The notes beneath the pieces are model-generated. The model worked only from the letters and a program-made list of their open reading frames with translations, made no database searches and was not told where the DNA came from. A program made the position numbers and the translations under genes. Source: an uncultured Gammaproteobacteria bacterium (GTDB lineage: Bacteria > Pseudomonadota > Gammaproteobacteria > Steroidobacterales > SZUA-146). Taken from it: a stretch of DNA of 64,000 nucleotides. The stretch is from the NCBI GenBank assembly GCA_963922815.1, contig CAWUKD010000002.1, forward strand, positions 2,128-66,127, given 5' to 3'. Below are positions 1,357-64,000 of the stretch, one piece after another (within the stretch, counting starts at the first letter, position 1; every line of letters begins with the position of its first letter).

Positions 1357-1679
1357 AGAAGCCTCACAGTGATGTTGGGCAGAGTCGTCCTGACGGCTCT
1401 TGATGCAACTGTCGCACACCTTGCCCATACCTGCGCTGAACGCCGGAAGGGTTTTAGTCGGTAATCCGACCGGGTGGCCGTCGAAAACTCTTACAGTAAC
1501 CATTATGTTCCAGCGATTCTGCCCGTAGTTCACAGTTTTGCAAGCCGCTCACTGGCCGCCAATGGCTCCTATTGTGTGATGCGGTTCACAGTTCTGGATG
1601 CCAGTGTCCCCGTTATGTCCCAAGACGGGTCTCACGGGGCGTTCTGGCCCGGGAATTGCTAATAGATACCTGACAGCCA

Positions 1680-1907
1680 CCGAATCAGCGGTTTAAAGAG
1701 GCCAGATCATGGAACGGTATGACGACAGCGGAAGTTGGCAGGACGTGTACGGAACCAGGACAACCAAAAAAAGAAGTGGCGGCATAACCTGAGAGAATAA
1801 CTCCGATCCCCATGGAGTGGAGTTGAAGAAGCAAATAAGAGCGGAATAACGGCCAGGCTTCTTCAAGTAACTTGCCCTTCATCGTTTACGGTGAAGGGCT
1901 TTTTTTT
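1680..1907 (+). ncRNA. candidate CsrA/RsmA-titrating sRNA (CsrB/RsmY/RsmZ-like); 5' end not determinable
   Basis: There are 8 GGA triplets within 1711-1845, mostly in A/C-N-GGA context, in an ORF-poor gap. The stretch ends in a strong intrinsic terminator at 1874-1907. Confidence 0.4.
1874..1907 (+). terminator. rho-independent terminator
   Basis: GCCCTTCA (1874-1881) pairs with TGAAGGGC (1892-1899) and is followed by T8 (1900-1907). Confidence 0.75.
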
Positions 1908-2331: not shown

Positions 2332-5300
2332 ATGATTAATCATCTTTCTGCCGGTACCAGCACGCAATCACTGCGTCTGGGAATACCGGTTTTCCTACAG
2401 CGTGTTGTGATGGCGGTTTTTGCCACCATGCTGATCGCATTACCCGTCGCGTCACAGGCGCAACAAACCAGTTCTGCGGTACGCGGTACAGTGACCAGCG
2501 AAAGCGGTGCACCGATCGCCAATTCGACCGTAACGATTCGAAACGAGCAGTCCGGCTTGACGCGGACCGCTACGACCGACGCCAACGGTGAGTTTAATTT
2601 CCGCAATTTGCCGGTTGGCTACAACTACAGCGTTACCGCATCGAGCAGTGGCTACGGCAGTGAGCGCTATGAAGACATCAGCCTGAATCTTGGTAAGACC
2701 GCAAGCGTGAACTTTGCACTTGCTGCCGGTTCTGCCGTGGCAGAAGAGGTCATGGTCGTGGCGACGCGTTCAGAGCTGTCACAGATTGCGGTTGGCCCGA
2801 GCTCCACGTTTGGACTGGAAGAGCTTGAGCTGTCGCCAGCTATTAACCGAAACATTACTGACGTTATTCGTGCTGATGCTCGAATCTACGTTGACGAATC
2901 ACGTGGCGACATCAACGCGGTTCAGTGCGGCGGCAAGAACCCGCGATTCAACAGCCTCACGGTAGACGGTGTTCGTCTGAACGATTCGTTTGGACTCAAT
3001 GCAAACGGCTATCCGACCGAGCGCATGCCGTTCTCATACGACGCCATCAAGCAGGTAGCTGTTGAACTCGCACCGTTTGATGTTGAATATGGTGGTTTTT
3101 CCGCGTGTAACATCAACGCAGTCACCAAATCAGGTGGCAACGAGTTTTTCGGATCGACCTTTATCGATTACACCAGCGACAGCCTGCGCGGTGACAGCCT
3201 GGAAGGCGAAGACATTACCAGCGGCAGCTATACCGAAACCCGTTACGGCCTGAGCGTTGGTGGTCCGATTATCCAGGACAAGCTGTTTTTCTTTGCCGCT
3301 TACGAAAAGCTTGAAGGCGCGAACCTGTTCGACCGCGGGCCTATCGGTTCTGGTGCGGTCAACGAAGTACAGGTTACCCAGGCGGAGCTTGACGAGATCG
3401 TGTCTATTGCCAATACGCTTTATCAGTACGATCCGGGTGGCATTCCGGACAGTCTGGATCACACCGACGACAAACTCCTGATCAAGCTGGACTGGAATAT
3501 CAGCGAACAACAGCGTCTCGCTTTCACCTACAACTTTAACGATGGTGAGAATTTCTCGACTTCTGACGGCGACCTGGATGAATTCGAGTTCACCAATCAC
3601 CTCTATGAGCGCGGTGCCGAGCTGAACTCCTATGCGGCTACACTCTACTCCGACTGGACGCCTGATTTTTCAACCGAGCTTCGCATTGCGACGCTGGAAC
3701 TCGACAACCGACAGCTTTCTGTCGGCGGAACCGATTTCGGTGAAATCCGGGTTGAACTGGATGACGTGGACGTCTATCTCGGCGGCGACGACAGTCGGCA
3801 GTCGAACAAGCTTAAATACGATGTTGATACAATTGCTCTGAAAGGCAAATATCTTCTCGGTAATCACGACATCACGTTTGGTGTCGAGCGAGAGGCATTT
3901 GACGTTTTCAACCTGTTCGTTCAGCACTCTGAAACAGAAATTCGTTTCGATGGTATTGACAACTTCCGCAATGGTTTTGCCGACGCGATTTACTACAACA
4001 ACGCGCCGTCCAATAACGTCAATGATGCAGCGGCTGACTGGGGCTACGACCTCAACACGCTGTATATCCAGGACGAAATTCAGATTAACGATCGTCTGAG
4101 TGTGGTTGCTGGCCTGCGCTACGACTTCTACTCAACGGACTCTGCACCTGCAGAAAACGCTGAGTTTGTTGCGGATTACGGTTTCTCCAACTCCAACACT
4201 GTGGATGGCGAAGGTCTGCTGCAGCCACGATTTGGCTTCACGTTTGACTGGTCTGATACAACGACCCTTCGCGGTGGTGTTGGCCTGTACTCCGGTGGTA
4301 ACCCTAACGTCTGGTTGTCCAACAACTACTCAGCCAATAACGTGCTGCAGTTTGGCCAGCGTGGCCGCTCATTTGGTTACACAGATGGCACCCGTTCGCT
4401 GTTTGATGCCGATGTTGTTTACCTCGGCCTCGAAGACGGTGTTCCAAACGGCCCTGGATACGGCATTCCTTCCGAACTGTTTAACGCAGTAGCGGGCGGA
4501 GTGGGCGACAACTTCGAAATCAACTATCTTGATCCCGATTTCGAACTGCCTTCTGAGTGGAAAGTTGCACTGGGTGTTACCCACATTTTCCCGAACGACT
4601 ACGTATTTAATGCGGACGTGCTGTACACGGACGGGCAGGATACGGCGATTGTGCTTCACGGCGATCTTGAACAGACGGGTACAAACCCGGACGGCTACCC
4701 GATCTACGACAGCGTGCGCGCACCCAGTTTCGTGCTGACCAACAGTAATGTTGGCGACCAGTCACTGAACTTTTCCATGAGCGTGGCTAAATCGTTTGAC
4801 AACGGGTTCGACTTTACCGCGGGCTATTCGTACAGCGATTCTGAAGACATTAACCCGATGACCAGTTCAGTAGCCTTTTCAAACTACCAGAATCGTGCGT
4901 TCTTCGATCCACAGGAAGATGTTCGTTCGACTTCGAACTACAACATCAAGCATCGCCTGACGTTTACGTCTAACTACCGCAGAACGCTGTTTGGCAAATA
5001 TGACACCACACTGTCGTTCTATGGTGCTGCCAACTCTGGCCGACCATTCAGTATTGCGTACAACGGAACAATCGATCCTTATGGCTTCACGCCGTTCCTC
5101 GATTTCCGCGACAACGTTTTGTTGCCAGGTGCCACGCGTAACAGCGAAGAGGGATCCTGGTGGCGCAAGCTGGACATGCGTGTGAACGTGGACTTCCCTG
5201 GGTTTGGCGAAGGTCATAGTGCGTCTGCCTTTATGGTTATCGACAACCTGACCAATCTGCTCAACGACGAGTGGGGCGTACTGAATCAGCACAATTTCCC

Positions 5301-5388
5301 ACGTACCGTTGTTGAAGGTACCGAGGAAAGCCGTATTGGTGACGCATCTCGCTACGAAATCCGATTCGGATTTAAATACGCCTTCTAA
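2332..5388 (+). CDS. TonB-dependent receptor, Oar-like, with N-terminal carboxypeptidase-regulatory-like domain
   Basis: 1018 aa with a signal peptide ending ALPVASQA. The N-terminus reads VRGTVTSESGAPIANSTVTIRNEQSGLTRTATTDANGEFNFRNLPVGYNY. The length fits a beta-barrel and the protein ends in an aromatic residue (RFGFKYAF). GAGGG lies 8 nt upstream of the ATG. Confidence 0.9.
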   Translation: MINHLSAGTSTQSLRLGIPVFLQRVVMAVFATMLIALPVASQAQQTSSAVRGTVTSESGAPIANSTVTIRNEQSGLTRTATTDANGEFNFRNLPVGYNYSVTASSSGYGSERYEDISLNLGKTASVNFALAAGSAVAEEVMVVATRSELSQIAVGPSSTFGLEELELSPAINRNITDVIRADARIYVDESRGDINAVQCGGKNPRFNSLTVDGVRLNDSFGLNANGYPTERMPFSYDAIKQVAVELAPFDVEYGGFSACNINAVTKSGGNEFFGSTFIDYTSDSLRGDSLEGEDITSGSYTETRYGLSVGGPIIQDKLFFFAAYEKLEGANLFDRGPIGSGAVNEVQVTQAELDEIVSIANTLYQYDPGGIPDSLDHTDDKLLIKLDWNISEQQRLAFTYNFNDGENFSTSDGDLDEFEFTNHLYERGAELNSYAATLYSDWTPDFSTELRIATLELDNRQLSVGGTDFGEIRVELDDVDVYLGGDDSRQSNKLKYDVDTIALKGKYLLGNHDITFGVEREAFDVFNLFVQHSETEIRFDGIDNFRNGFADAIYYNNAPSNNVNDAAADWGYDLNTLYIQDEIQINDRLSVVAGLRYDFYSTDSAPAENAEFVADYGFSNSNTVDGEGLLQPRFGFTFDWSDTTTLRGGVGLYSGGNPNVWLSNNYSANNVLQFGQRGRSFGYTDGTRSLFDADVVYLGLEDGVPNGPGYGIPSELFNAVAGGVGDNFEINYLDPDFELPSEWKVALGVTHIFPNDYVFNADVLYTDGQDTAIVLHGDLEQTGTNPDGYPIYDSVRAPSFVLTNSNVGDQSLNFSMSVAKSFDNGFDFTAGYSYSDSEDINPMTSSVAFSNYQNRAFFDPQEDVRSTSNYNIKHRLTFTSNYRRTLFGKYDTTLSFYGAANSGRPFSIAYNGTIDPYGFTPFLDFRDNVLLPGATRNSEEGSWWRKLDMRVNVDFPGFGEGHSASAFMVIDNLTNLLNDEWGVLNQHNFPRTVVEGTEESRIGDASRYEIRFGFKYAF

Positions 5389-20071: not shown

Positions 20072-20211
20072 GTTCTGGCTATAACTCAGGAGCAGTCCGG
20101 CCGAATAAAATGGTGCGACGCAAGATAAATGCCTCGCGCTGTCTTGCATGCCCGATTGCCTGAGACACAGGTAACTGACCGGCCCGATAAAATAAGAATG
20201 GATAAGAATTG

Positions 20212-39526: not shown

Positions 39527-40236
39527 ACAGAGGCAGGTTGCTGTCCAAAGCGATAGCCCACACCCCAGACGGTGGTCAGCATCGCCGGTGAAGAAGGGTC
39601 GGGCTCTATCTTTCCTCGCAGACGATTGATGTGGGTGTTTACCGTGTGCTCATAGCCGTCGTGGCCATACCCCCAGACCTGATCCAGCAGCTGGGATCGT
39701 GTAAACACAACCCCCGGATGGCTGGCAAAGTGGGCCAGAAGGTCAAATTCCTTGGCGGTAAGCGTGACCGAACCGCCGCCGATCATGACGTCCCGGGAGC
39801 GCAAATCTATGATCAGGTCACCAGCGCAAATCTGTTTGTTTTGCTGTGCACCATTGTCCTGCCGACCCATTTCACTGCGTCGGAAAATAGCTTTGGCCCG
39901 CGCCACCATTTCGCGCACGCTGAACGGCTTGGTCAGGTAATCATCGGCACCCAGCTCAAGACCAAGTACGCGATCTATCTCGGAGGTTTTGGCTGTGATC
40001 ATGATAATCGGGACCGTGCTACCCGATTCCCGGAGTGCTCTGCATATGTGCAGGCCGTCGTTGCCGGGCAGCTGGATGTCCAGAAGGACCAGGTCCCATG
40101 ACTGCGACAGCGCCAGATCAAGTCCCTTGCGACCGTCGTGGGCCACGGTGACTTCCTCGCAGACATCCTGGAGGTGCAGTTTGATGAGCGCGGCGATATC
40201 GGTTTCGTCTTCAATAACTAGGGCATTTCTGGCCAT
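39523..40236 (-). CDS. OmpR/PhoB family response regulator
   Basis: Start at ATG 40234-40236 (MARNALVIEDE). Receiver Asp (LVLLDIQLP) and winged helix TVWGVGYRF. It overlaps the kinase gene by 4 nt. Confidence 0.9.
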   Translation of the reverse strand: MARNALVIEDETDIAALIKLHLQDVCEEVTVAHDGRKGLDLALSQSWDLVLLDIQLPGNDGLHICRALRESGSTVPIIMITAKTSEIDRVLGLELGADDYLTKPFSVREMVARAKAIFRRSEMGRQDNGAQQNKQICAGDLIIDLRSRDVMIGGGSVTLTAKEFDLLAHFASHPGVVFTRSQLLDQVWGYGHDGYEHTVNTHINRLRGKIEPDPSSPAMLTTVWGVGYRFGQQPASV

Positions 40237-46334: not shown

Positions 46335-47336
46335 GTGACGGAACTCTACTACGCGGCCGCGTGCCAGACGGATTTCAAAGCGCCGGCAGATCGTGAGGGA
46401 ATCGCTGCCAACACGAAACGGATGTGCGCCATGCTCGAGCAGACGATCGCCGGGTATGAGCCTTTTTTTGACGTTCGTCTGTTTGTGTTTCCCGAATTTG
46501 CGCACGCCGTACCGCTCTATCAAACGACGTCGGAATTGAAAAAACGGCTTGCCGTAACATTGCCTAATGAACATACCGAACAGTATGAAAAGCTGGCCAG
46601 AAAACACGGCTGTTACATTCAGACCGGCACTTTTCTGGAGGTTGATGAGAATTACCCGGGCGCTTTGTTTAATACAACGCTGCTGATTGGCCCCGATGGT
46701 ATTCTGAGCCGGTACCGTAAAGTAAATACCTGGATACCCTGGGAGGTCCATACCTCGCCGGCGGATCTGGGAAACTATACGGAAGAGCTGTTCCCGGTGG
46801 TGGATACGGAGCTTGGAAAGCTCGGTGTTGCCATTTGCTACGACTGGCTGTTTCCGGAAACCATTCGCCAGCTGGGTTTCAACGGTGCCGAAGTTATTTT
46901 GCGGGTGTCTGCCTACATGAACCCCTGGGGTACGGCGGAACCGATGAACTGGTGGGGATTGATCAATCAGACCCGGGCGATAGAAAATACAGCGTACGTT
47001 GTGGCCTCCAATCAGGGCGCCGAGTTTGCCAACTACCCGCCGTTTTGCTGGCCAGGCGGTAGTATGGTGGTGGACTACGATGGTCGCGTACTGGCCCAGG
47101 CAGATGCGGGGCCGGGTGAGCGAGTGGTAGTTGCTCCTATCAATATCGGGCAGCTGCGACACGAGCGCGAACGACGAACCGGGCATGATATGCGTAGCCA
47201 CCTGCGCACCTCTGCCCACTCATATTTGAAACATGATTATCTCGCACCGGCGGGCGACCAGGCGATTACTATCGAGTCGCTAAACGCCCGGATTGGTGAA
47301 GGTAAAGAAACCGTTAAGAAACGCCAAAAGGATTAG
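46335..47336 (+). CDS. carbon-nitrogen hydrolase family protein (aliphatic amidase/formamidase-like)
   Basis: Glu-Lys-Cys triad contexts VFPEF, YRKVNTWIPWE and VAICYDWLFPE. GTG 46335 is preceded by GGAG with a 7-nt spacer (the ORF track starts at GTG 46317). Confidence 0.8.
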   Translation: MTELYYAAACQTDFKAPADREGIAANTKRMCAMLEQTIAGYEPFFDVRLFVFPEFAHAVPLYQTTSELKKRLAVTLPNEHTEQYEKLARKHGCYIQTGTFLEVDENYPGALFNTTLLIGPDGILSRYRKVNTWIPWEVHTSPADLGNYTEELFPVVDTELGKLGVAICYDWLFPETIRQLGFNGAEVILRVSAYMNPWGTAEPMNWWGLINQTRAIENTAYVVASNQGAEFANYPPFCWPGGSMVVDYDGRVLAQADAGPGERVVVAPINIGQLRHERERRTGHDMRSHLRTSAHSYLKHDYLAPAGDQAITIESLNARIGEGKETVKKRQKD

Positions 47337-50300: not shown

Positions 50301-50711
50301 CAGTTTCTGCATCTGCGCGAAGCCGAGCTCATGCAAAGCGGTTTTCCCAAGCGCATTCAGCAGCCGCAGCGGCGCCCCGACTATGATTTCAGTCAGCGTA
50401 TTCCGTTTTGGGACACGAGATATCCGGAAGGGTATTACACTGTGCTGGGTGACGTTAAACCGCTGCTCGACGAAACCGATGGCGCGTTTGTGGTCATTGG
50501 GCCCGGCGAGGATGCCGAGCTGGCGTTCGACACGCCCGGAAAATTGAACAATGGATGGACGCGTCGATACGTGTTTTTCGTTTCGGGCTATGCCAAGGAC
50601 ATGGATATGTACACCCAGGACTCTGGAACCGTGGGTCCACTGCCTGAATTCCCATCGGCAAATCGCGCCTTACATAACACCTACAACACGCGGTTCCGCG
50701 ACGGGTACTAG
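47343..50711 (+). CDS. large lipoprotein: TPR repeats + FG-GAP/VCBS beta-propeller repeats + UnbV/ASPIC domain + ~420-aa uncharacterised C-terminal domain
   Basis: Lipobox AVFVIGC. TPR-like helices span aa ~50-235. There are six DxDxDG-type repeats (DIDNDGKVD, DADHDGDLD, DLDSDRDTD, DANADGRIE, DFNGDGTLD...). The UnbV-like segment reads SNRSGVGTRVAIRRG...IAVGLG...IDWSDG. Confidence 0.8.
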   Translation: MPNTHLPEQLSRVGSRLRRVATIWLAAVFVIGCGDADVTTGGQESLQLTAKDIEINNRGVALMGYFDYASAREAFREAVDRQPRWADVKVNLAIATLNRQMEGDEVLARGYLEEVLSENPDNLRASFVSGLLAERAGEAELAKQRYQRVLDEDPNDAYAAYYLAVLTQTDDPDAARELFARAIRIDPYLRSAYYGAFLLHVRSGNREEGLEMQAIYERLADNPRARLAETKYTRMGSKADALAVGLDSIQDVAIPQGPLFMEPQTIATFAVPGDRSLTTVDLGDDGLQDIFVANLEGPAQVIQAGEEEYRQLENHPLSELGPMIAVAWSDIDNDGKVDLAACGPDSVTVHFKTGVDSWALKRPLQSLTGNKKCSDLQLLDADHDGDLDLFVAFQSGGHDVLSNNGDRSFRSLREERDLALSDRSGRNLVAADLDSDRDTDLLVVTAGGVDILFNDRLWDYTPAGDVDAAQVPGTLLDTDLLALTAADANADGRIELYGIGVTGQLLQWTRDGAESWTSRVLSTVSANAGSSVEMDVSDFNGDGTLDMLLVDDDGLRVLSLGADSVTTLFEFEGDISNAMHLVADADKGPSIVALVDTPAGQHLLRFPPGPGRGKFAALTFEGQEEKADSMRSNRSGVGTRVAIRRGSQWTIKDNFDRHTGRGQSSQPIAVGLGSDEVVDYIAIDWSDGVFQTELNLEAGRQHNVTETQRQLSSCPVLFAWNGEEWTFLSDVLGVGGIGFLHDPAAQGASRYGEPRPWEYFAIPEELLQPIDGALKLKVTEPMEELALLDNAQLVAYDLAPGWNMVLDERMSTGQPVATGQPRYYRNEFKAAQVVRGDGADLTAAVAQTDFVAADLGNAHPRFLGMLETPHSVVMKFDEPLNSKRGPLLLKASGWVEYPYSQTVFAAWQSGALYTPPSLEAGDDAGNWTMLHKNFGYPAGMPREMSVPLGVLPPNTTQLRLSGNLEIYWDALSLVEIEEPPEADVVRQFLHLREAELMQSGFPKRIQQPQRRPDYDFSQRIPFWDTRYPEGYYTVLGDVKPLLDETDGAFVVIGPGEDAELAFDTPGKLNNGWTRRYVFFVSGYAKDMDMYTQDSGTVGPLPEFPSANRALHNTYNTRFRDGY

Positions 50712-56899: not shown

Positions 56900-58378
56900 C
56901 TAGACCTGATACCGAACTTTCGCCACGGCGCTATTCCAGCGTTTGATTTTTTCCTGTCGTTTGCCGTCGGCCATGGATGGCACGAATTCTCTGTCCAGTT
57001 TCCACAGTGTCGTGATGTCCTGCAGTGATCCGATGATTCCCGCGCCCAGTCCGGCGACGACGGCTGCACCTAGCACCGTGGTTTCAATGTTCTCCGGCCT
57101 TTGAACGGGCAGCTCCAGAATGTCGGAGAGCAGCTGCATAACCCAGCTATTGGCGCACATGCCGCCGTCGACCCGAAGGCTGCTGATCGTGGCTCCGTCG
57201 GCGCGCATCGCGCTGAGCAGATCCAGTGACTGGTAGCACACGGACTCAAGAGCTGCGGTTACGATATGCTCGAATCCGGTGTTACGCGTCAAACCGAAAA
57301 TGGCGCCCCTGGCGTCAGCGTCCCAGTGTGGCGCTCCCAGGCCTGTAAACGCCGGCACCATAACAACGCTGCCCTGATCGTCGAGTGATTCAGCAATCGC
57401 TTCGCTGTCGGCCGCCTGATCGAGAACCTGGAGTTTATCGCGCAGCCACTGAACTACGGCGCCGGCGATGAAAACGGAACCTTCGAGCGCGTACGTAGTG
57501 GTGCCGTCCAGTCGATACGCAATCGTGGTCAGCAGCTGATGCTCCGATTTCAGTGCCCTTTGTCCTGTGTTTAACATGACGAAATTGCCGGTGCCGTAGG
57601 TGCTCTTGATCATGCCCGGTTCGAAGCAGGCCTGACCCACTGTTGCTGCGTGCTGATCTCCAAGTACGCCGTGTATGGGTACCGGATGATCAAAAAGTAC
57701 GCTGGCATCACCGAAGTACGCGTCGCAGTCGAGAACATCCGGGAGCATGCTCGCCGGCACACCAAACAGGTCCAGCAGCTGTTGATCCCAGCTCAGCGTA
57801 TGGATGTCGAACAACATGGTGCGTGCGGCATTGGTCACATCAGTTACATGTCGTGAGCGCTCGCTGAGCTTGTAGATGAGGAAGCTGTCCACGGTGCCAA
57901 AAGCCAGATGGCCCTCGTTGCTCAGCTGCCGCGCGCCGTCTACGTGATCCAGAATCCATCGAATTTTCGTGGCGGAAAAGTAGGCGTCAAGCAGGAGCCC
58001 GGTCCGGTCAGAAATCAGTTTTCCGTGGCCCTGCGCATCCAGTTCCTGGCAGAAGCCGGCCGTACGTCGATCCTGCCATACGATAGCGGGGCTGACGGGT
58101 TCTCCGGTTCGTCGATCCCAGACCACGGTTGTCTCGCGCTGATTGGTTATACCAACGGCGGCTACGCTGTCGGCGTTTATTGTCGCCAGCACCTTGCGGC
58201 AGGTCTCATGAACCGACTGCCAGATTTCATTGGCGTCATGTTCCACCCAGCCGTCTTTGGGAAAGTGCTGAGTAAACTCTTGTTGGGCACTCGCTACCGG
58301 TTTTCCTGAAGCGTCAAAAATCACCGCTCGTGAACTGGTCGTGCCCTGATCGATTGAAAGAATTAGCGGTGAGCTCAT
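56900..58378 (-). CDS. glpK: glycerol kinase
   Basis: Start at ATG 58376-58378 (MSSPLILSIDQGTTSSRAVIFD). FGGY kinase motifs run throughout. Confidence 0.9.
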   Translation of the reverse strand: MSSPLILSIDQGTTSSRAVIFDASGKPVASAQQEFTQHFPKDGWVEHDANEIWQSVHETCRKVLATINADSVAAVGITNQRETTVVWDRRTGEPVSPAIVWQDRRTAGFCQELDAQGHGKLISDRTGLLLDAYFSATKIRWILDHVDGARQLSNEGHLAFGTVDSFLIYKLSERSRHVTDVTNAARTMLFDIHTLSWDQQLLDLFGVPASMLPDVLDCDAYFGDASVLFDHPVPIHGVLGDQHAATVGQACFEPGMIKSTYGTGNFVMLNTGQRALKSEHQLLTTIAYRLDGTTTYALEGSVFIAGAVVQWLRDKLQVLDQAADSEAIAESLDDQGSVVMVPAFTGLGAPHWDADARGAIFGLTRNTGFEHIVTAALESVCYQSLDLLSAMRADGATISSLRVDGGMCANSWVMQLLSDILELPVQRPENIETTVLGAAVVAGLGAGIIGSLQDITTLWKLDREFVPSMADGKRQEKIKRWNSAVAKVRYQV

Positions 58379-62685: not shown

Positions 62686-64000
62686 ATGGCCGACACAAAA
62701 AGCCTTAAAAGCGCGTTCGATATCGGTCGGGAGGCGTTCCTTGGCGGGGACCTCGAACGGGCGCGTGAGTGCTATCTGGAGGAAATGCAAAGGCGACCAG
62801 AGGATGCCGAGGTTCTCCATGCTCTTGCCGCCGTGGAGCATCGAGCAGGAGAGCTGGATCTTGCGGAGACTTATCTTCTCAAAGCCATAGAGCTCAATCG
62901 TTACGGCGTCGGATTTCAGAACAGCCTTGGTAACCTGCTGGTGGCAAAGAATCGCCTGCGTGAAGCCGAAGCAGCTTACTTTGAAGAGCTGCGCATGCGT
63001 CCTGAATTTTCGCTGTCACACAACCAGCTCGGCAAGCTGATGCTGCGTACCGGAAATCTCACCCGGGCGATCAAACATTTTCAATCGGCGCTGCAGTTTA
63101 CACCGGCCTATGTTGATGCGGCTAACAACCTTGGATTGGCGTTACTGCGCGACGGGCAGCACACTGCGGCTGCCACGGCTCTGGAGCAGGCGCTTGAGCT
63201 CGACGAAAAAAGCGCACGAGCCCATGCAAACCTGGGGCACGTACGATTGCAGCGAGGGGAGTCAACCGAAGCGGCGGCTCGCTTCGAACGGGCGCTGGTG
63301 CTGGATCCCCGGTGCGCGGCTGCGATTCGCGGTATGGGTTTGCTACGGCTCGCACAGGGTAAGGTGCAGGAGGCGATTGCCGCCTTTGGAAAGGTGCTGC
63401 AGATTGACCCTCAGGATCTTGAGGCCCTGAGAGAGCTGGCAAAAGTCTGGGAGCGGCAGGGCCTGTGGGAAGTTGCCGAAAAGTATTTTCGCCGGGCTCA
63501 TAGCCTGGCGCCAAATGACCTTGACGTATTGAATCATCTTGCCAGTCTTCAGATGAATCGCGGTGACTGGCCGGGTGCCATTGAAAGCTTTGAAAAGGCG
63601 CTTCAGATCAAGCCCGGTGATCAAACGAGTCTCGCCGGCTATGGTCGGTTGAAGGCGGCTACCGGTGATACCAAGCTGGCCATGTCCAAACTGTCGGCCG
63701 TGGTACATTCGGGTCGCGCTAAAACCAACCTCCTGATCGCCTATGCAAGACTGCTCGGAGCGTCGGCTCGACGTCGTGATGGCATTACCCTGCTTGAGCA
63801 ACGCTTGCGTACGAAAATTCCCGACAACGAAAAGTGCAAGCTGCATTTTGCACTTGGTTCACTGCTGGATGCGGATAGCTCTTACGATTTGGCCTTCCAC
63901 AATTTTCGCAAAGCCAATCAGCTGAAGGCGGCGAAGTTTGATGGACCTCGATTTTCGGCCGTCTGCGATCGTATCATCGAAGCGTTTAGTTACGAGGCGA
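62686..64000 (+). CDS. TPR-repeat protein, 3' end beyond window (possibly TPR + sulfotransferase type)
   Basis: This ORF is not in the ORF track because it runs off the window. I translated it by hand from ATG 62686 (GAGGA 4 nt upstream) to base 64000 and found no stop. It has at least 8 TPR-like repeats and no signal peptide. Confidence 0.75.
   Translation, partial: MADTKSLKSAFDIGREAFLGGDLERARECYLEEMQRRPEDAEVLHALAAVEHRAGELDLAETYLLKAIELNRYGVGFQNSLGNLLVAKNRLREAEAAYFEELRMRPEFSLSHNQLGKLMLRTGNLTRAIKHFQSALQFTPAYVDAANNLGLALLRDGQHTAAATALEQALELDEKSARAHANLGHVRLQRGESTEAAARFERALVLDPRCAAAIRGMGLLRLAQGKVQEAIAAFGKVLQIDPQDLEALRELAKVWERQGLWEVAEKYFRRAHSLAPNDLDVLNHLASLQMNRGDWPGAIESFEKALQIKPGDQTSLAGYGRLKAATGDTKLAMSKLSAVVHSGRAKTNLLIAYARLLGASARRRDGITLLEQRLRTKIPDNEKCKLHFALGSLLDADSSYDLAFHNFRKANQLKAAKFDGPRFSAVCDRIIEAFSYEA

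Follow-up and report, generated by a model that had tools for sequence, protein, structure and literature searches.

On the + strand of the gap between the DUF2799 gene and the TonB-dependent receptor gene, there is very probably a gene for an independent non-coding RNA that ends at a terminator and is preceded by a regulatory dyad. With moderate confidence, we lean toward reading the locus as an undescribed, clade-restricted sRNA gene of about 237 nt, which would start from a sigma-54-type promoter and act in trans through conserved loops in its 3′ region, and not as the CsrA sponge proposed in a sequence-only reading of the same DNA. In the 64-kb window (the whole stretch of DNA that was analysed), the gap covers 1357–2331 (975 nt), as DUF2799 starts at ATG 1356. 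The earlier estimate of about 800 bp was too small. The elements of the locus, in window coordinates, are the following:

1575–1590, no strand assigned: perfect inverted repeat TGTGATGCGGTTCACA (TGTGA-N6-TCACA), a candidate enhancer or activator site present in all eight loci.
1591–1644, + strand: 54-nt spacer between dyad and box, invariant in length in 8/8 genomes and only 35–56% identical in sequence.
1645–1660, + strand: TGGCCCGGGAATTGCT, a sigma-54-type promoter-like box with −24 (GG) and −12 (TGC) elements, its halves invariant in eight genomes.
About 1671–1907, + strand: predicted transcript of about 237 nt, its 5′ end placed from the −12 element (plus or minus a few nt) and its 3′ end at the terminator U-tract.
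1671–1790, + strand: fast-evolving 5′ half, 38–45% identical to homologues at near-constant length, with five of the eight GGAs and a 27-codon ORF.
1799–1824, + strand: hairpin 1, stem AACUCCGAUCC / GGAGUGGAGUU with a C-rich apical loop, folding independently in each complete homologue.
1824–1865, + strand: hairpin 2, 9-bp stem UGAAGAAGC / GCUUCUUCA around the 24-nt loop AAAUAAGAGCGGAAUAACGGCCAG (1833–1856), a candidate effector site.
1874–1907, + strand: Rho-independent terminator from a terminator scan, with an 11-bp GC-rich stem (1874–1899), a GUUU(A) loop and U8.

Conservation and structure of the RNA

The dyad, the box, the 3′ domain and the terminator are common to eight homologous loci (the window and seven related genomes), a comparison of fairly close relatives only, from which the intermediate relatives P0003 and P0007 were left out. 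The RNA is single-copy at each locus and is absent from 35 more distant DUF2799 loci, and a metagenome pattern scan returned two loci only. The distance from the predicted start to the end of the T-run is 231–241 nt in the eight genomes. Conservation is strongest in the 3′ domain, which is 77–87% identical, against 38–45% for the 5′ half and 65–67% for the flanking coding sequences.

In an alignment fitted to the structure model (covariance-model realignment replaced the MAFFT alignments, which misplace hairpin-1 indels), the three-helix model of two hairpins and the terminator is 95.4% paired, and 11 of its pairs have changes on both sides. Two such pairs are in helix 1 (CUCC/GGAG vs CUCU/AGAG), which is 91.7% paired, and three in helix 2, which is 97.2% paired; the terminator alignment has 12 pairs, five of them changed on both sides. 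None of 500 shuffles reached the level of the model, and slid controls were 41–53% paired with at most three both-side-changed pairs. RNAalifold independently recovers hairpin 2 and the terminator. The loop of hairpin 2 is A-rich and nearly invariant, with the invariant pattern AAnAAGAGCnnAAnAA. The loop of hairpin 1 reads CCAU in the window and CCCAA in the relatives, and CCCA was also called invariant in our analysis.

The whole transcript has an MFE z-score of −2.0. A terminal closing helix recurs in seven of the eight homologues and begins a few nucleotides after the predicted 5′ end. Despite this helix, we do not claim a conserved structure for the 5′ domain, because the folding z-scores of the 5′ half are mixed and not consistently negative (−0.1 in the window). 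Conserved structure with compensatory changes, a terminator of its own and the lack of a conserved ORF together point to an independent structured sRNA gene.

Dyad, promoter-like box and predicted transcription start

The palindrome upstream of the RNA had been described as an imperfect 18-bp GacA-like dyad (1573–1590). It is better read as a perfect 16-bp CRP-type repeat at 1575–1590, which matches the CRP-family consensus core exactly and also fits the pattern TGT-N10-ACA. TGTGA-N6-TCACA is unique in the window even when one mismatch is allowed (0.04 expected). The box sits exactly 70 nt downstream of the dyad in all eight genomes, whereas the distance from the dyad to the DUF2799 ATG ranges between 168 and 260 nt. 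Within it, TGGCCC and TTGCT are invariant and the five bases between them vary, and its spacing fits the sigma-54 consensus. Sigma-54 recognizes GG at −24 and TGC at −12 (PMC3844500), and invariant halves with a variable middle are the pattern that would be expected under such recognition. From the centre of the dyad to the predicted start is about 88 bp, which is inside the usual range of 70–150 bp for upstream activator sites of sigma-54 promoters (PMC3844500).

The promoter is probably of the sigma-54 type, judged from this pattern. The box is sub-canonical, with TGGCCC in place of TGGCAC, and −24 elements of the form TGGCCC are found only among predicted Ralstonia sites (PMC4371752). On a sigma-54 PWM built from 27 Salmonella promoters, the window box scores 11.9 bits and ranks 6 of 127,966 positions, five other window positions outscoring it. 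Across the loci the boxes score 11.9–15.0 bits, below the minimum of 16.3 in the Salmonella training range (16.3–23.6). No rpoN or enhancer-binding protein gene was found in the 64 kb, and a GAFTGA/AAA+ activator motif was likewise absent there. Upstream of the receptor gene, GGGTTTGTAACCTGCA was considered as a second sigma-54-like site and rejected, as L001 has lost the −12 TGC and the site is outside the top PWM matches.

The same sRNA might instead be transcribed from a sigma-70 promoter with a CRP-family activator bound at the dyad in a class II arrangement. The start would then be near 1624, and the box would be a conserved part of the RNA or a further regulatory site. It is also conceivable that the two promoters operate side by side, as at glmY, where sigma-70 and sigma-54 promoters overlap (PMC3045617). 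The exact CRP core of the dyad agrees with this reading, and so does its occurrence elsewhere. The same dyad stands upstream of DUF2799 in five distant loci that have neither the RNA nor the box. Two of the outgroup loci, L004 and L011, show class II geometry, with GATAAT 21–26 nt after the dyad and then a gene start some 65 nt further on. In the five genomes without the box, the dyad resembles a CRP-type site of class II that serves the neighbouring protein gene. By this distribution the dyad is older than the RNA, so its function may be other than that of a sigma-54 enhancer. In the window and in L037, CGTTAT (3/6) occupies the class II position. However, no −10 hexamer is conserved at that position in the RNA-bearing clade (1–4/6 matches), yet the −24/−12 box is invariant, and identity over 1593–1640 is only 35–56%. 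The promoter scan of 1300–2400 found no sigma-70 site; the sequence-only reading had placed no convincing −35/−10. We consider a sigma-70 start unlikely and keep the sigma-54-type start as the preferred one.

Terminator and the downstream receptor gene

The intrinsic terminator at 1874–1907, with its 11-bp stem at 1874–1899 followed by T8, had been recognized correctly in the sequence-only reading. It should work in the + direction only, because the opposite strand has no T-run. At every locus, the gene that immediately follows the RNA element is that of the TonB-dependent receptor, read in the same orientation, an arrangement that would also suit a cis-acting leader. Transcription would then run on into the receptor gene, and the hairpins and terminator would form a regulated attenuator. 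The 240 nt from the terminator to the receptor start are also highly conserved, and weak PyrR-like and rnk-leader-like Rfam matches reflect a hairpin-terminator layout. However, the terminator, with its 11-bp stem and U8, is a strong one, and inspection showed no convincing antiterminator pairing. The receptor gene has its own conserved promoter-like TTGTAA-17-TAGAGT at 2036–2064, and the Rfam matches are far under the gathering score (27 vs 54 bits; 19 vs 50). Regulation as a leader thus seems improbable to us. Rfam searches at the gathering score over the 64 kb and at E≤10 on 1350–2400 gave nothing relevant. The PyrR, rnk-leader and L10-leader matches were set aside as generic hairpin-terminator layouts far below threshold.

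GGA triplets and coding potential

The count of eight GGA triplets within 1711–1845 is correct (at 1711, 1730, 1741, 1751, 1758, 1814, 1819, and 1843), and it was the ground for proposing a Csr/Rsm-type sponge, which would sequester CsrA/RsmA through many GGAs and be driven by a GacA/UvrY-type box. Csr/Rsm sponges carry A(N)GGA motifs at roughly one per 15–20 nt, maintained across homologues. The locus shares with CsrB, CsrC, RsmX, RsmY and RsmZ a non-coding, intergenic and terminator-ended character without a conserved CDS, and its GGA density in the window is locally Csr-like (8 in 135 nt). Seven of the triplets had been placed in an A/C-N-GGA context; the stricter A-N-GGA is found in three of the eight and AGGA in two.

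The reported GGA excess stands against the window-wide rate of one per 72 nt (Poisson P=7.6e-4 for 8 in 135 nt) and disappears once local composition is controlled. The local sequence is purine-rich (A 0.32, G 0.28), and this composition explains the count. Mononucleotide shuffles gave a mean of 5.8 GGA for the 237-nt transcript (P=0.18 for at least eight) and P=0.076 for eight in the 135-nt stretch. Five equally GGA-dense 135-nt stretches occur in the 64 kb, counting the two strands. In the seven related genomes, there are 3–5 GGA per ~237 nt, or one per 47–80 nt, which is at the background of one per 72 nt, and L037, the closest relative, has no GGA in its 5′ half.

The predicted pairing state of the GGAs is mixed. 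Four in the window are predicted to be mostly open (unpaired probability 0.69–0.92) and two are intermediate (0.35–0.40), whereas the two at 1814 and 1819, in the 3′ arm of hairpin 1, are buried in its stem (0.01 each). These stem triplets are the conserved ones. The sole loop GGA of the conserved domain, in the AGCGGAA of the hairpin-2 loop, is retained by most homologues and is replaced by GUA in L039 and AUA in L040. Conservation of the block, proposed earlier as a check, was thus found for the 3′ domain of the RNA, the terminator and the dyad, which are kept in eight genomes, but not for the GGA repeats.

The CsrB, CsrC, RsmX, RsmY and RsmZ models of Rfam had no match at the gathering score (64 kb) or at E≤10 (1350–2400, permissive filters). 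The supposed GacA/UvrY box at 1573 matches TGTAAG-N6-CTTACA at 8/12 positions, a chance level that 88 sites in the window equal or exceed. No CsrA homologue was found within the 64-kb window, and a UvrY-like receiver/LuxR-type match at 39883–40227 (28% identity) is not diagnostic. Known csrB, rsmY and rsmZ promoters are sigma-70-dependent, whereas the conserved promoter-like element of the locus is of the sigma-54 type. With the GGA repeats unconserved, partly in a stem and explained by composition, and with neither an Rfam match nor a GacA box, we drop the sponge identity as very improbable.

A small-protein gene, either the 27-codon ORF at 1709–1792 (+), which in the window has a Shine-Dalgarno-like AGAGG 7 nt upstream, or the 65-codon ORF at 1685–1882 (−), is hardly credible, as neither ORF is conserved in the seven homologues (sense ORFs are either missing there or found at other positions, with other lengths and sequences), the ORF region is only ~40% identical, and the conservation that exists is RNA-type covariation. 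With no gap ORF conserved across homologues, the earlier view that the gap contains no convincing CDS is upheld.

Comparison with known sRNAs

Precedents for sigma-54-driven sRNA genes are GlmY/GlmZ (PMC3045617) and Qrr (PMC13501541). The Rfam models of GlmY, GlmZ, Qrr, CrcZ, and NrsZ gave no match at the gathering score or at E≤10. With GlmY/GlmZ of Enterobacterales (Rfam GlmY_tke1 and GlmZ_SraJ; ~150–200 nt), the locus shares a stand-alone gene, a multi-hairpin body and an intrinsic terminator. GlmY/GlmZ have a sigma-54 −24/−12 promoter with upstream palindromic GlrR sites, TGTCN10GACA (PMC3045617), and GlmY acts by protein decoy (PMC3045617; PMC13501541). The locus, in contrast, has one TGTGA-N6-TCACA dyad where GlmY/GlmZ have three GlrR sites, at a different spacing, and no recognizable conserved IHF site. 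It also lacks an Rfam sequence or structure match to them and lies in another genomic context, in an unrelated uncultured clade.

The Qrr sRNAs of Vibrionaceae are sigma-54- and LuxO-dependent, trans-acting and terminator-ended (PMC13501541). They are ~100 nt long and multi-copy with a conserved 5′ seed, whereas the RNA of the locus is ~237 nt long, single-copy and conserved in its 3′ half. It has no Rfam match to Qrr, and the dyad is not a LuxO site.

CrcZ is sigma-54- and CbrB-dependent, and the CbrB site, TGTTAC-N12-GTAACA, differs from the dyad of the locus. The likeness to CrcZ/CrcY of Pseudomonadaceae is in the loop pattern AAnAAGAGCnnAAnAA and the neighbouring AAGAAG/AAGAAU stretches, which are ARN-like; CrcZ uses A-rich (CA) motifs as a decoy for Hfq (PMC13501541). 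However, CrcZ is ~400 nt long with 5–6 strict AAnAAnAA motifs, whereas the RNA of the locus has none that is strict, the hairpin-2 stem takes up part of its A-rich sequence in base pairs, and the Rfam CrcZ model does not match.

Spot 42 and CyaR have an upstream CRP site of the TGTGA-N6-TCACA type, of which the dyad of the locus is the perfect core. The locus differs from both: neither the Spot_42 nor the CyaR model of Rfam matches, the centre of the site falls near −88 with respect to the conserved box, and the sequence after the site shows no conserved sigma-70 −10.

Proposed mechanism and significance

In the preferred reading, transcription would most likely start ~12 nt downstream of the sigma-54-type −24/−12 box (1645–1660). 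The palindrome at 1575–1590, rigidly coupled to the box through the 54-nt spacer, may be bound by an activator or co-activator that belongs to the CRP family or to the enhancer-binding proteins. The strong intrinsic terminator would end transcription. The functional part would be the 3′ domain, comprising the C-rich-loop hairpin, the A-rich 24-nt-loop hairpin, an A-rich linker, and the terminator with its U8 tail. The 5′ half may serve as a spacer or scaffold whose length is constrained while its sequence evolves rapidly. The RNA would, we infer, act in trans by way of its exposed conserved loops. It might base-pair with mRNAs, aided by an Hfq-like chaperone on the A-rich/ARN-like stretches and the U-tail, or it might titrate an RNA-binding protein.

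The window contains no sequence complementary to the hairpin-2 loop. The initiation region of the receptor gene was rejected as a target, since RNAduplex paired it with the 3′ domain over unrealistic lengths, the pairing partners were inconsistent, and the z-scores ranged from −0.1 to −2.1. Pairing of the hairpin-1 loop with the receptor Shine-Dalgarno sequence (CCCCAA:UUGGGG) was also rejected, as it is 6 nt, too short, and shows no compensatory change.

More tentatively, and as a scenario that we regard as rather doubtful, the RNA could be the founding sRNA of a new family in uncultured Woeseiaceae-related Gammaproteobacteria. An ancient CRP-type palindrome of a divergent sigma-70 promoter pair might have been captured at the 70-nt register as the activating site of a new sigma-54 promoter, so that sigma-54 control and a signal of the CRP family (cAMP or c-di-GMP type) would meet in one RNA. 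The RNA might then regulate nutrient-uptake genes, for example the adjacent TonB-dependent receptor gene, through the invariant A-rich loop.

The Csr/Rsm candidate was a false one that arose from counting GGA triplets in a single genome, and a few relatives sufficed to expose it. The locus provides a well-delimited candidate sRNA family, not in Rfam 15, from abundant uncultured sediment Gammaproteobacteria. Two of its features are open to test, the putative effector loop and the promoter arrangement, in which a CRP-type dyad keeps a fixed 70-nt distance to a −24/−12 box. If confirmed, the locus would be a sigma-54-dependent riboregulator beyond the enterobacterial, Vibrio, and Pseudomonas models, and it would show an old transcription-factor site re-used by a new RNA gene.

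Conservation of the gap

The DUF2799 lipoprotein gene begins at ATG 1356 on the − strand (MYRLILTIFAVTLLGGC…) and the receptor ORF starts at 2332, leaving 1357-2331 without long ORFs, a longer gap than the sequence-only reading had stated. Related loci were fetched from species-representative genomes via the adjacent DUF2799 protein, metagenomes were scanned with a DNA pattern from the conserved part, and further contigs were fetched via protein homologues. The homologous intergenic region was found in seven loci (L037, L038, L001, L036, L002, L039, and L040), whose DUF2799 proteins share 57-83% identity with that of the window. Synteny is kept (2OG-oxygenase, nucleoside hydrolase, PfkB kinase, DUF2799, gap, and CarboxypepD_reg-type TonB-dependent receptor). 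Conservation of the gap is strongly mosaic across the homologues, and flanking coding DNA is 65-67% identical. The sequence-only reading had suggested a check for conservation of the block in relatives; it holds for the dyad, the box, and the 3' half of the RNA, but not for the GGA-rich 5' half.

Segments of the gap and their identity to the window
1573-1592, dyad, 65-90%
1593-1640, spacer, 35-56%
1641-1667, box, 68-93%
1668-1793, 5' half of the RNA (+ strand), 38-45%
1794-1907, 3' half of the RNA (+ strand), 77-87%

Putative promoter region

A perfect TGTGA-N6-TCACA dyad (1575-1590 in the window) is present in all eight genomes, and the box TGGCCC-N5-TTGCT (1645-1660) lies exactly 70 nt downstream, start to start, in each. 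The spacer between them is always 54 nt with an essentially free sequence, unlike the distance from the dyad to the DUF2799 start (168 to 260 nt), indicating that the dyad is functionally coupled to the box. Even when one mismatch is tolerated, the dyad pattern occurs once in the window (expected 0.04). It matches the core consensus of the CRP family and also fits TGT-N10-ACA, the form of NifA-type upstream activator sequences (PMC2820453). Its centre lies ~88 bp before the predicted start (~1671), a distance within the 70-150 bp typical of enhancers (PMC3844500).

The box is built and spaced like a σ54 promoter, which carries GG at −24 and TGC at −12 (PMC3844500). TGGCCC and TTGCT are invariant, and the bases between them vary (GGGAA, GGTAC, GTTAC, GTTAA, AAGAC). 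With a weight matrix trained on 27 Salmonella σ54 promoters, the box scored 11.9 bits (homologues 12.7-15.0), below the training range of 16.3-23.6 bits due to the C in place of A in TGGCAC, and ranked 6th of 127,966 positions. TGGCCC −24 elements were found only among predicted Ralstonia sites (PMC4371752). No σ70 promoter was found in the gap. The five positions outscoring the 1645 site (12.6-13.7 bits) are 14161(−), 10352(+), 45832(−), 19952(+), and 35799(+); the 19952 site is upstream of a + strand ORF starting at 20209.

Five more distant loci of Woeseiaceae type, without box or RNA, also have the perfect dyad upstream of DUF2799, so it is older than the RNA.

Dyad in the more distant loci
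L004, 3798-3813
L006, 3886-3901
L007, 3792-3807
L009, 3878-3893
L011, 3843-3858

In L004, L007, L009, and L011, a divergent membrane-protein gene (~296 aa) begins ~65 nt after the dyad. GATAAT follows the dyad by 21-26 nt in L004 and L011, which is class II CRP geometry. Judged from these motifs, the regulator that binds the dyad may belong to the CRP family and not be an enhancer-binding protein. In a weaker but still viable alternative, the same RNA is transcribed from a CRP/σ70 promoter with a start near 1624. The CRP-type dyad and the class II GATAAT of the two outgroup loci favor this start, and glmY offers a precedent for dual promoters (PMC3045617), but the hexamer at the class II position is degenerate in the RNA-bearing clade (1-4 of 6 matches; CGTTAT in the window).

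Predicted structure of the RNA

Measured from the predicted start through the U-tract, the RNA spans 231-241 nt in each of the eight genomes. The earlier proposal of an sRNA that ends in a terminator and has a regulatory dyad upstream was very probably right, as these parts are conserved across the eight genomes, and the terminator is as described (an 11-bp GC-rich hairpin at 1874-1899, then T8).

Elements of the 3' domain (+ strand)
About 1785-1907, whole domain: hairpin 1, hairpin 2, A-rich linker, terminator
1799-1824, hairpin 1
1824-1865, hairpin 2
1874-1907, terminator

RNAalifold recovered hairpin 2 and the terminator, with compensatory change in 12 pairs, and hairpin 1 folds on its own in every complete homologue. 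Once the sequences had been realigned to a covariance model of the three helices, 95.4% of cells were paired, a value somewhat inflated because the alignment was fitted to the model, and 11 pairs changed on both sides; none of 500 shuffles matched this. When partners were slid by 1-3 columns, pairing fell to 41-53% with at most three both-side changed pairs. The outer stem of hairpin 1 switches from CUCC/GGAG to CUCU/AGAG among homologues, and its C-rich apical loop contains an invariant CCCA. In L038, two N bases and a small deletion interrupt the 3' arm of hairpin 1 (about 560-565), probably an assembly gap, and this homologue thus contributes less to the hairpin-1 pair counts. The 24-nt loop of hairpin 2, AAAUAAGAGCGGAAUAACGGCCAG, contains the invariant pattern AAnAAGAGCnnAAnAA; among the presumably single-stranded stretches of the RNA, this is the most conserved. 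The 5' half evolves fast at constant length. A terminal closing helix is shared by 7 of the 8 homologues; folding z-scores are mixed (window −0.1, others +0.1 to −2.5), and we do not claim that the 5' structure is conserved. The covariance model found one copy per locus and no second copy in the window or in 35 more distant loci.

Alternative functions of the region

Less likely than the CRP/σ70 start, the RNA might act in cis, as leader or attenuator, on the receptor gene, which it precedes. Against this, its terminator is strong and the receptor has its own conserved promoter-like sequence. The intervals 1908-1953 and 2011-2145, between terminator and receptor start, are 76-92% identical across genomes, more than the coding sequence; they probably represent a regulated promoter and leader belonging to the receptor itself.

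Motifs between the terminator and the receptor
1947, 2025, and 2044, CTGCAA
Within 1908-1953 and 2011-2145, repeated AATCTGCAAC
2036-2064, promoter-like TTGTAA-17-TAGAGT
2090-2110, leader hairpin CCGGA-N11-TCCGG

In L037, L001, and L002, the receptor begins at an ATG equivalent to window 2146 (MFHQAFS…), which in the window opens just a 31-codon ORF (2146-2241). Only from ~nt 2401, inside ORF 2332-5388, is the sequence again homologous to the relatives' receptor, so ~225 nt are window-specific, with the ancestral start kept as an upstream ORF. On the other side, conserved blocks between the dyad and DUF2799 (GCACAC…GCTGAACG and CGTCGAAAACTCTTACA, at 1421-1445 and 1479-1495) lie at a varying distance from the dyad and are thus probably promoter or leader of DUF2799; on the − strand, CGTCGAAAACTCTTACA gives TGTAAG, a half-site of the GacA box that lacks its partner.

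The sequence-only reading had proposed a CsrA sponge driven by a GacA box, and here it was wrong. The GGA triplets do lie in the stretch it had described (at 1711, 1730, 1741, 1751, 1758, 1814, 1819, and 1843), and, given a window-wide rate of 1 per 72 nt, finding eight of them within 135 nt is unusual (Poisson P=7.6e-4), a count that only 0.16% of 135-nt windows on this strand reach. However, the transcript is purine-rich (A 0.32, G 0.28); its mononucleotide shuffles give 5.8±1.9 GGA, with at least 8 in 18%, and those of the 135-nt stretch reach the observed count in 7.6%. The enrichment is therefore real as a count but mostly a composition effect. There are five clusters of 8 GGA in the 64 kb; the other dense windows overlap long ORFs by coordinates, and comparable densities thus recur.

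Other 135-nt windows with at least 8 GGA
46683-46876, + strand
50493-50644, + strand
62724-62882, + strand
56918-57128, − strand (at least 8 TCC)

Exposure of the triplets in the partition-function fold was partial: four are mostly unpaired (0.69-0.92) and two intermediate, but 1814, which pairs with UCC 1807-1809 in hairpin 1, and 1819 are buried (0.01). It is the GGA-rich portion of the RNA that is not conserved. Homologous transcripts have 3-5 GGA each, the 5' half of L037, the closest relative, has none, and the hairpin-2 loop GGA (1843) is GUA in L039 and AUA in L040. With its binding motifs missing from the homologues, the sponge is not tenable. No Rfam 15 family reached its gathering score anywhere in the window, and the Csr/Rsm models gave no match on 1350-2400 even at E≤10 with permissive filters. 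Permissive matches to PyrR (27 vs 54 bits) and the rnk leader (19 vs 50) reflect merely the hairpin-terminator layout. The supposed GacA box matches at only 8/12 positions, equalled or bettered at 88 window positions, and the 64 kb contain no gene for CsrA, Hfq, CRP, or a σ54 activator. Four of the five testable defining features of a sponge failed, clearly so for the GGA repeats across homologues, the covariance-model match, and the GacA box. A small-protein gene ranks last among the alternatives, after the CRP/σ70 start, the leader, and the sponge. The 27-codon ORF 1709-1792 (MERYDDSGSWQDVYGTRTTKKRSGGIT; AGAGG 7 nt upstream of ATG) lies inside the variable 5' half and is absent from all seven homologues, which share no conserved sense-strand ORF in the RNA region.

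Proposed function and significance

The best-supported reading of these patterns is an independent trans-acting sRNA gene, with the dyad and the −24/−12 box as the elements that would control its transcription. Its likely effector surfaces are the conserved loops, exposed in the predicted fold. Candidate Hfq-binding modules, by resemblance, are the A-rich, ARN-like loop and linker together with the U8 tail of the terminator. No complement to the hairpin-2 loop was found in the window; duplexes predicted with the leader of the adjacent receptor were inconsistent and gave no target.

By kind, the gap RNA would belong with the σ54-dependent sRNAs GlmY/GlmZ and Qrr (PMC3045617; PMC13501541) and with CrcZ. 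However, it has no covariance-model match to these families and is not a member of them, and its enhancer sequence, size, and conserved parts all differ. A new sRNA family restricted to one clade is plausible. We consider it moderately interesting, chiefly for its rigid dyad-to-box promoter architecture and for the apparent re-use of an older regulatory site by an RNA gene.
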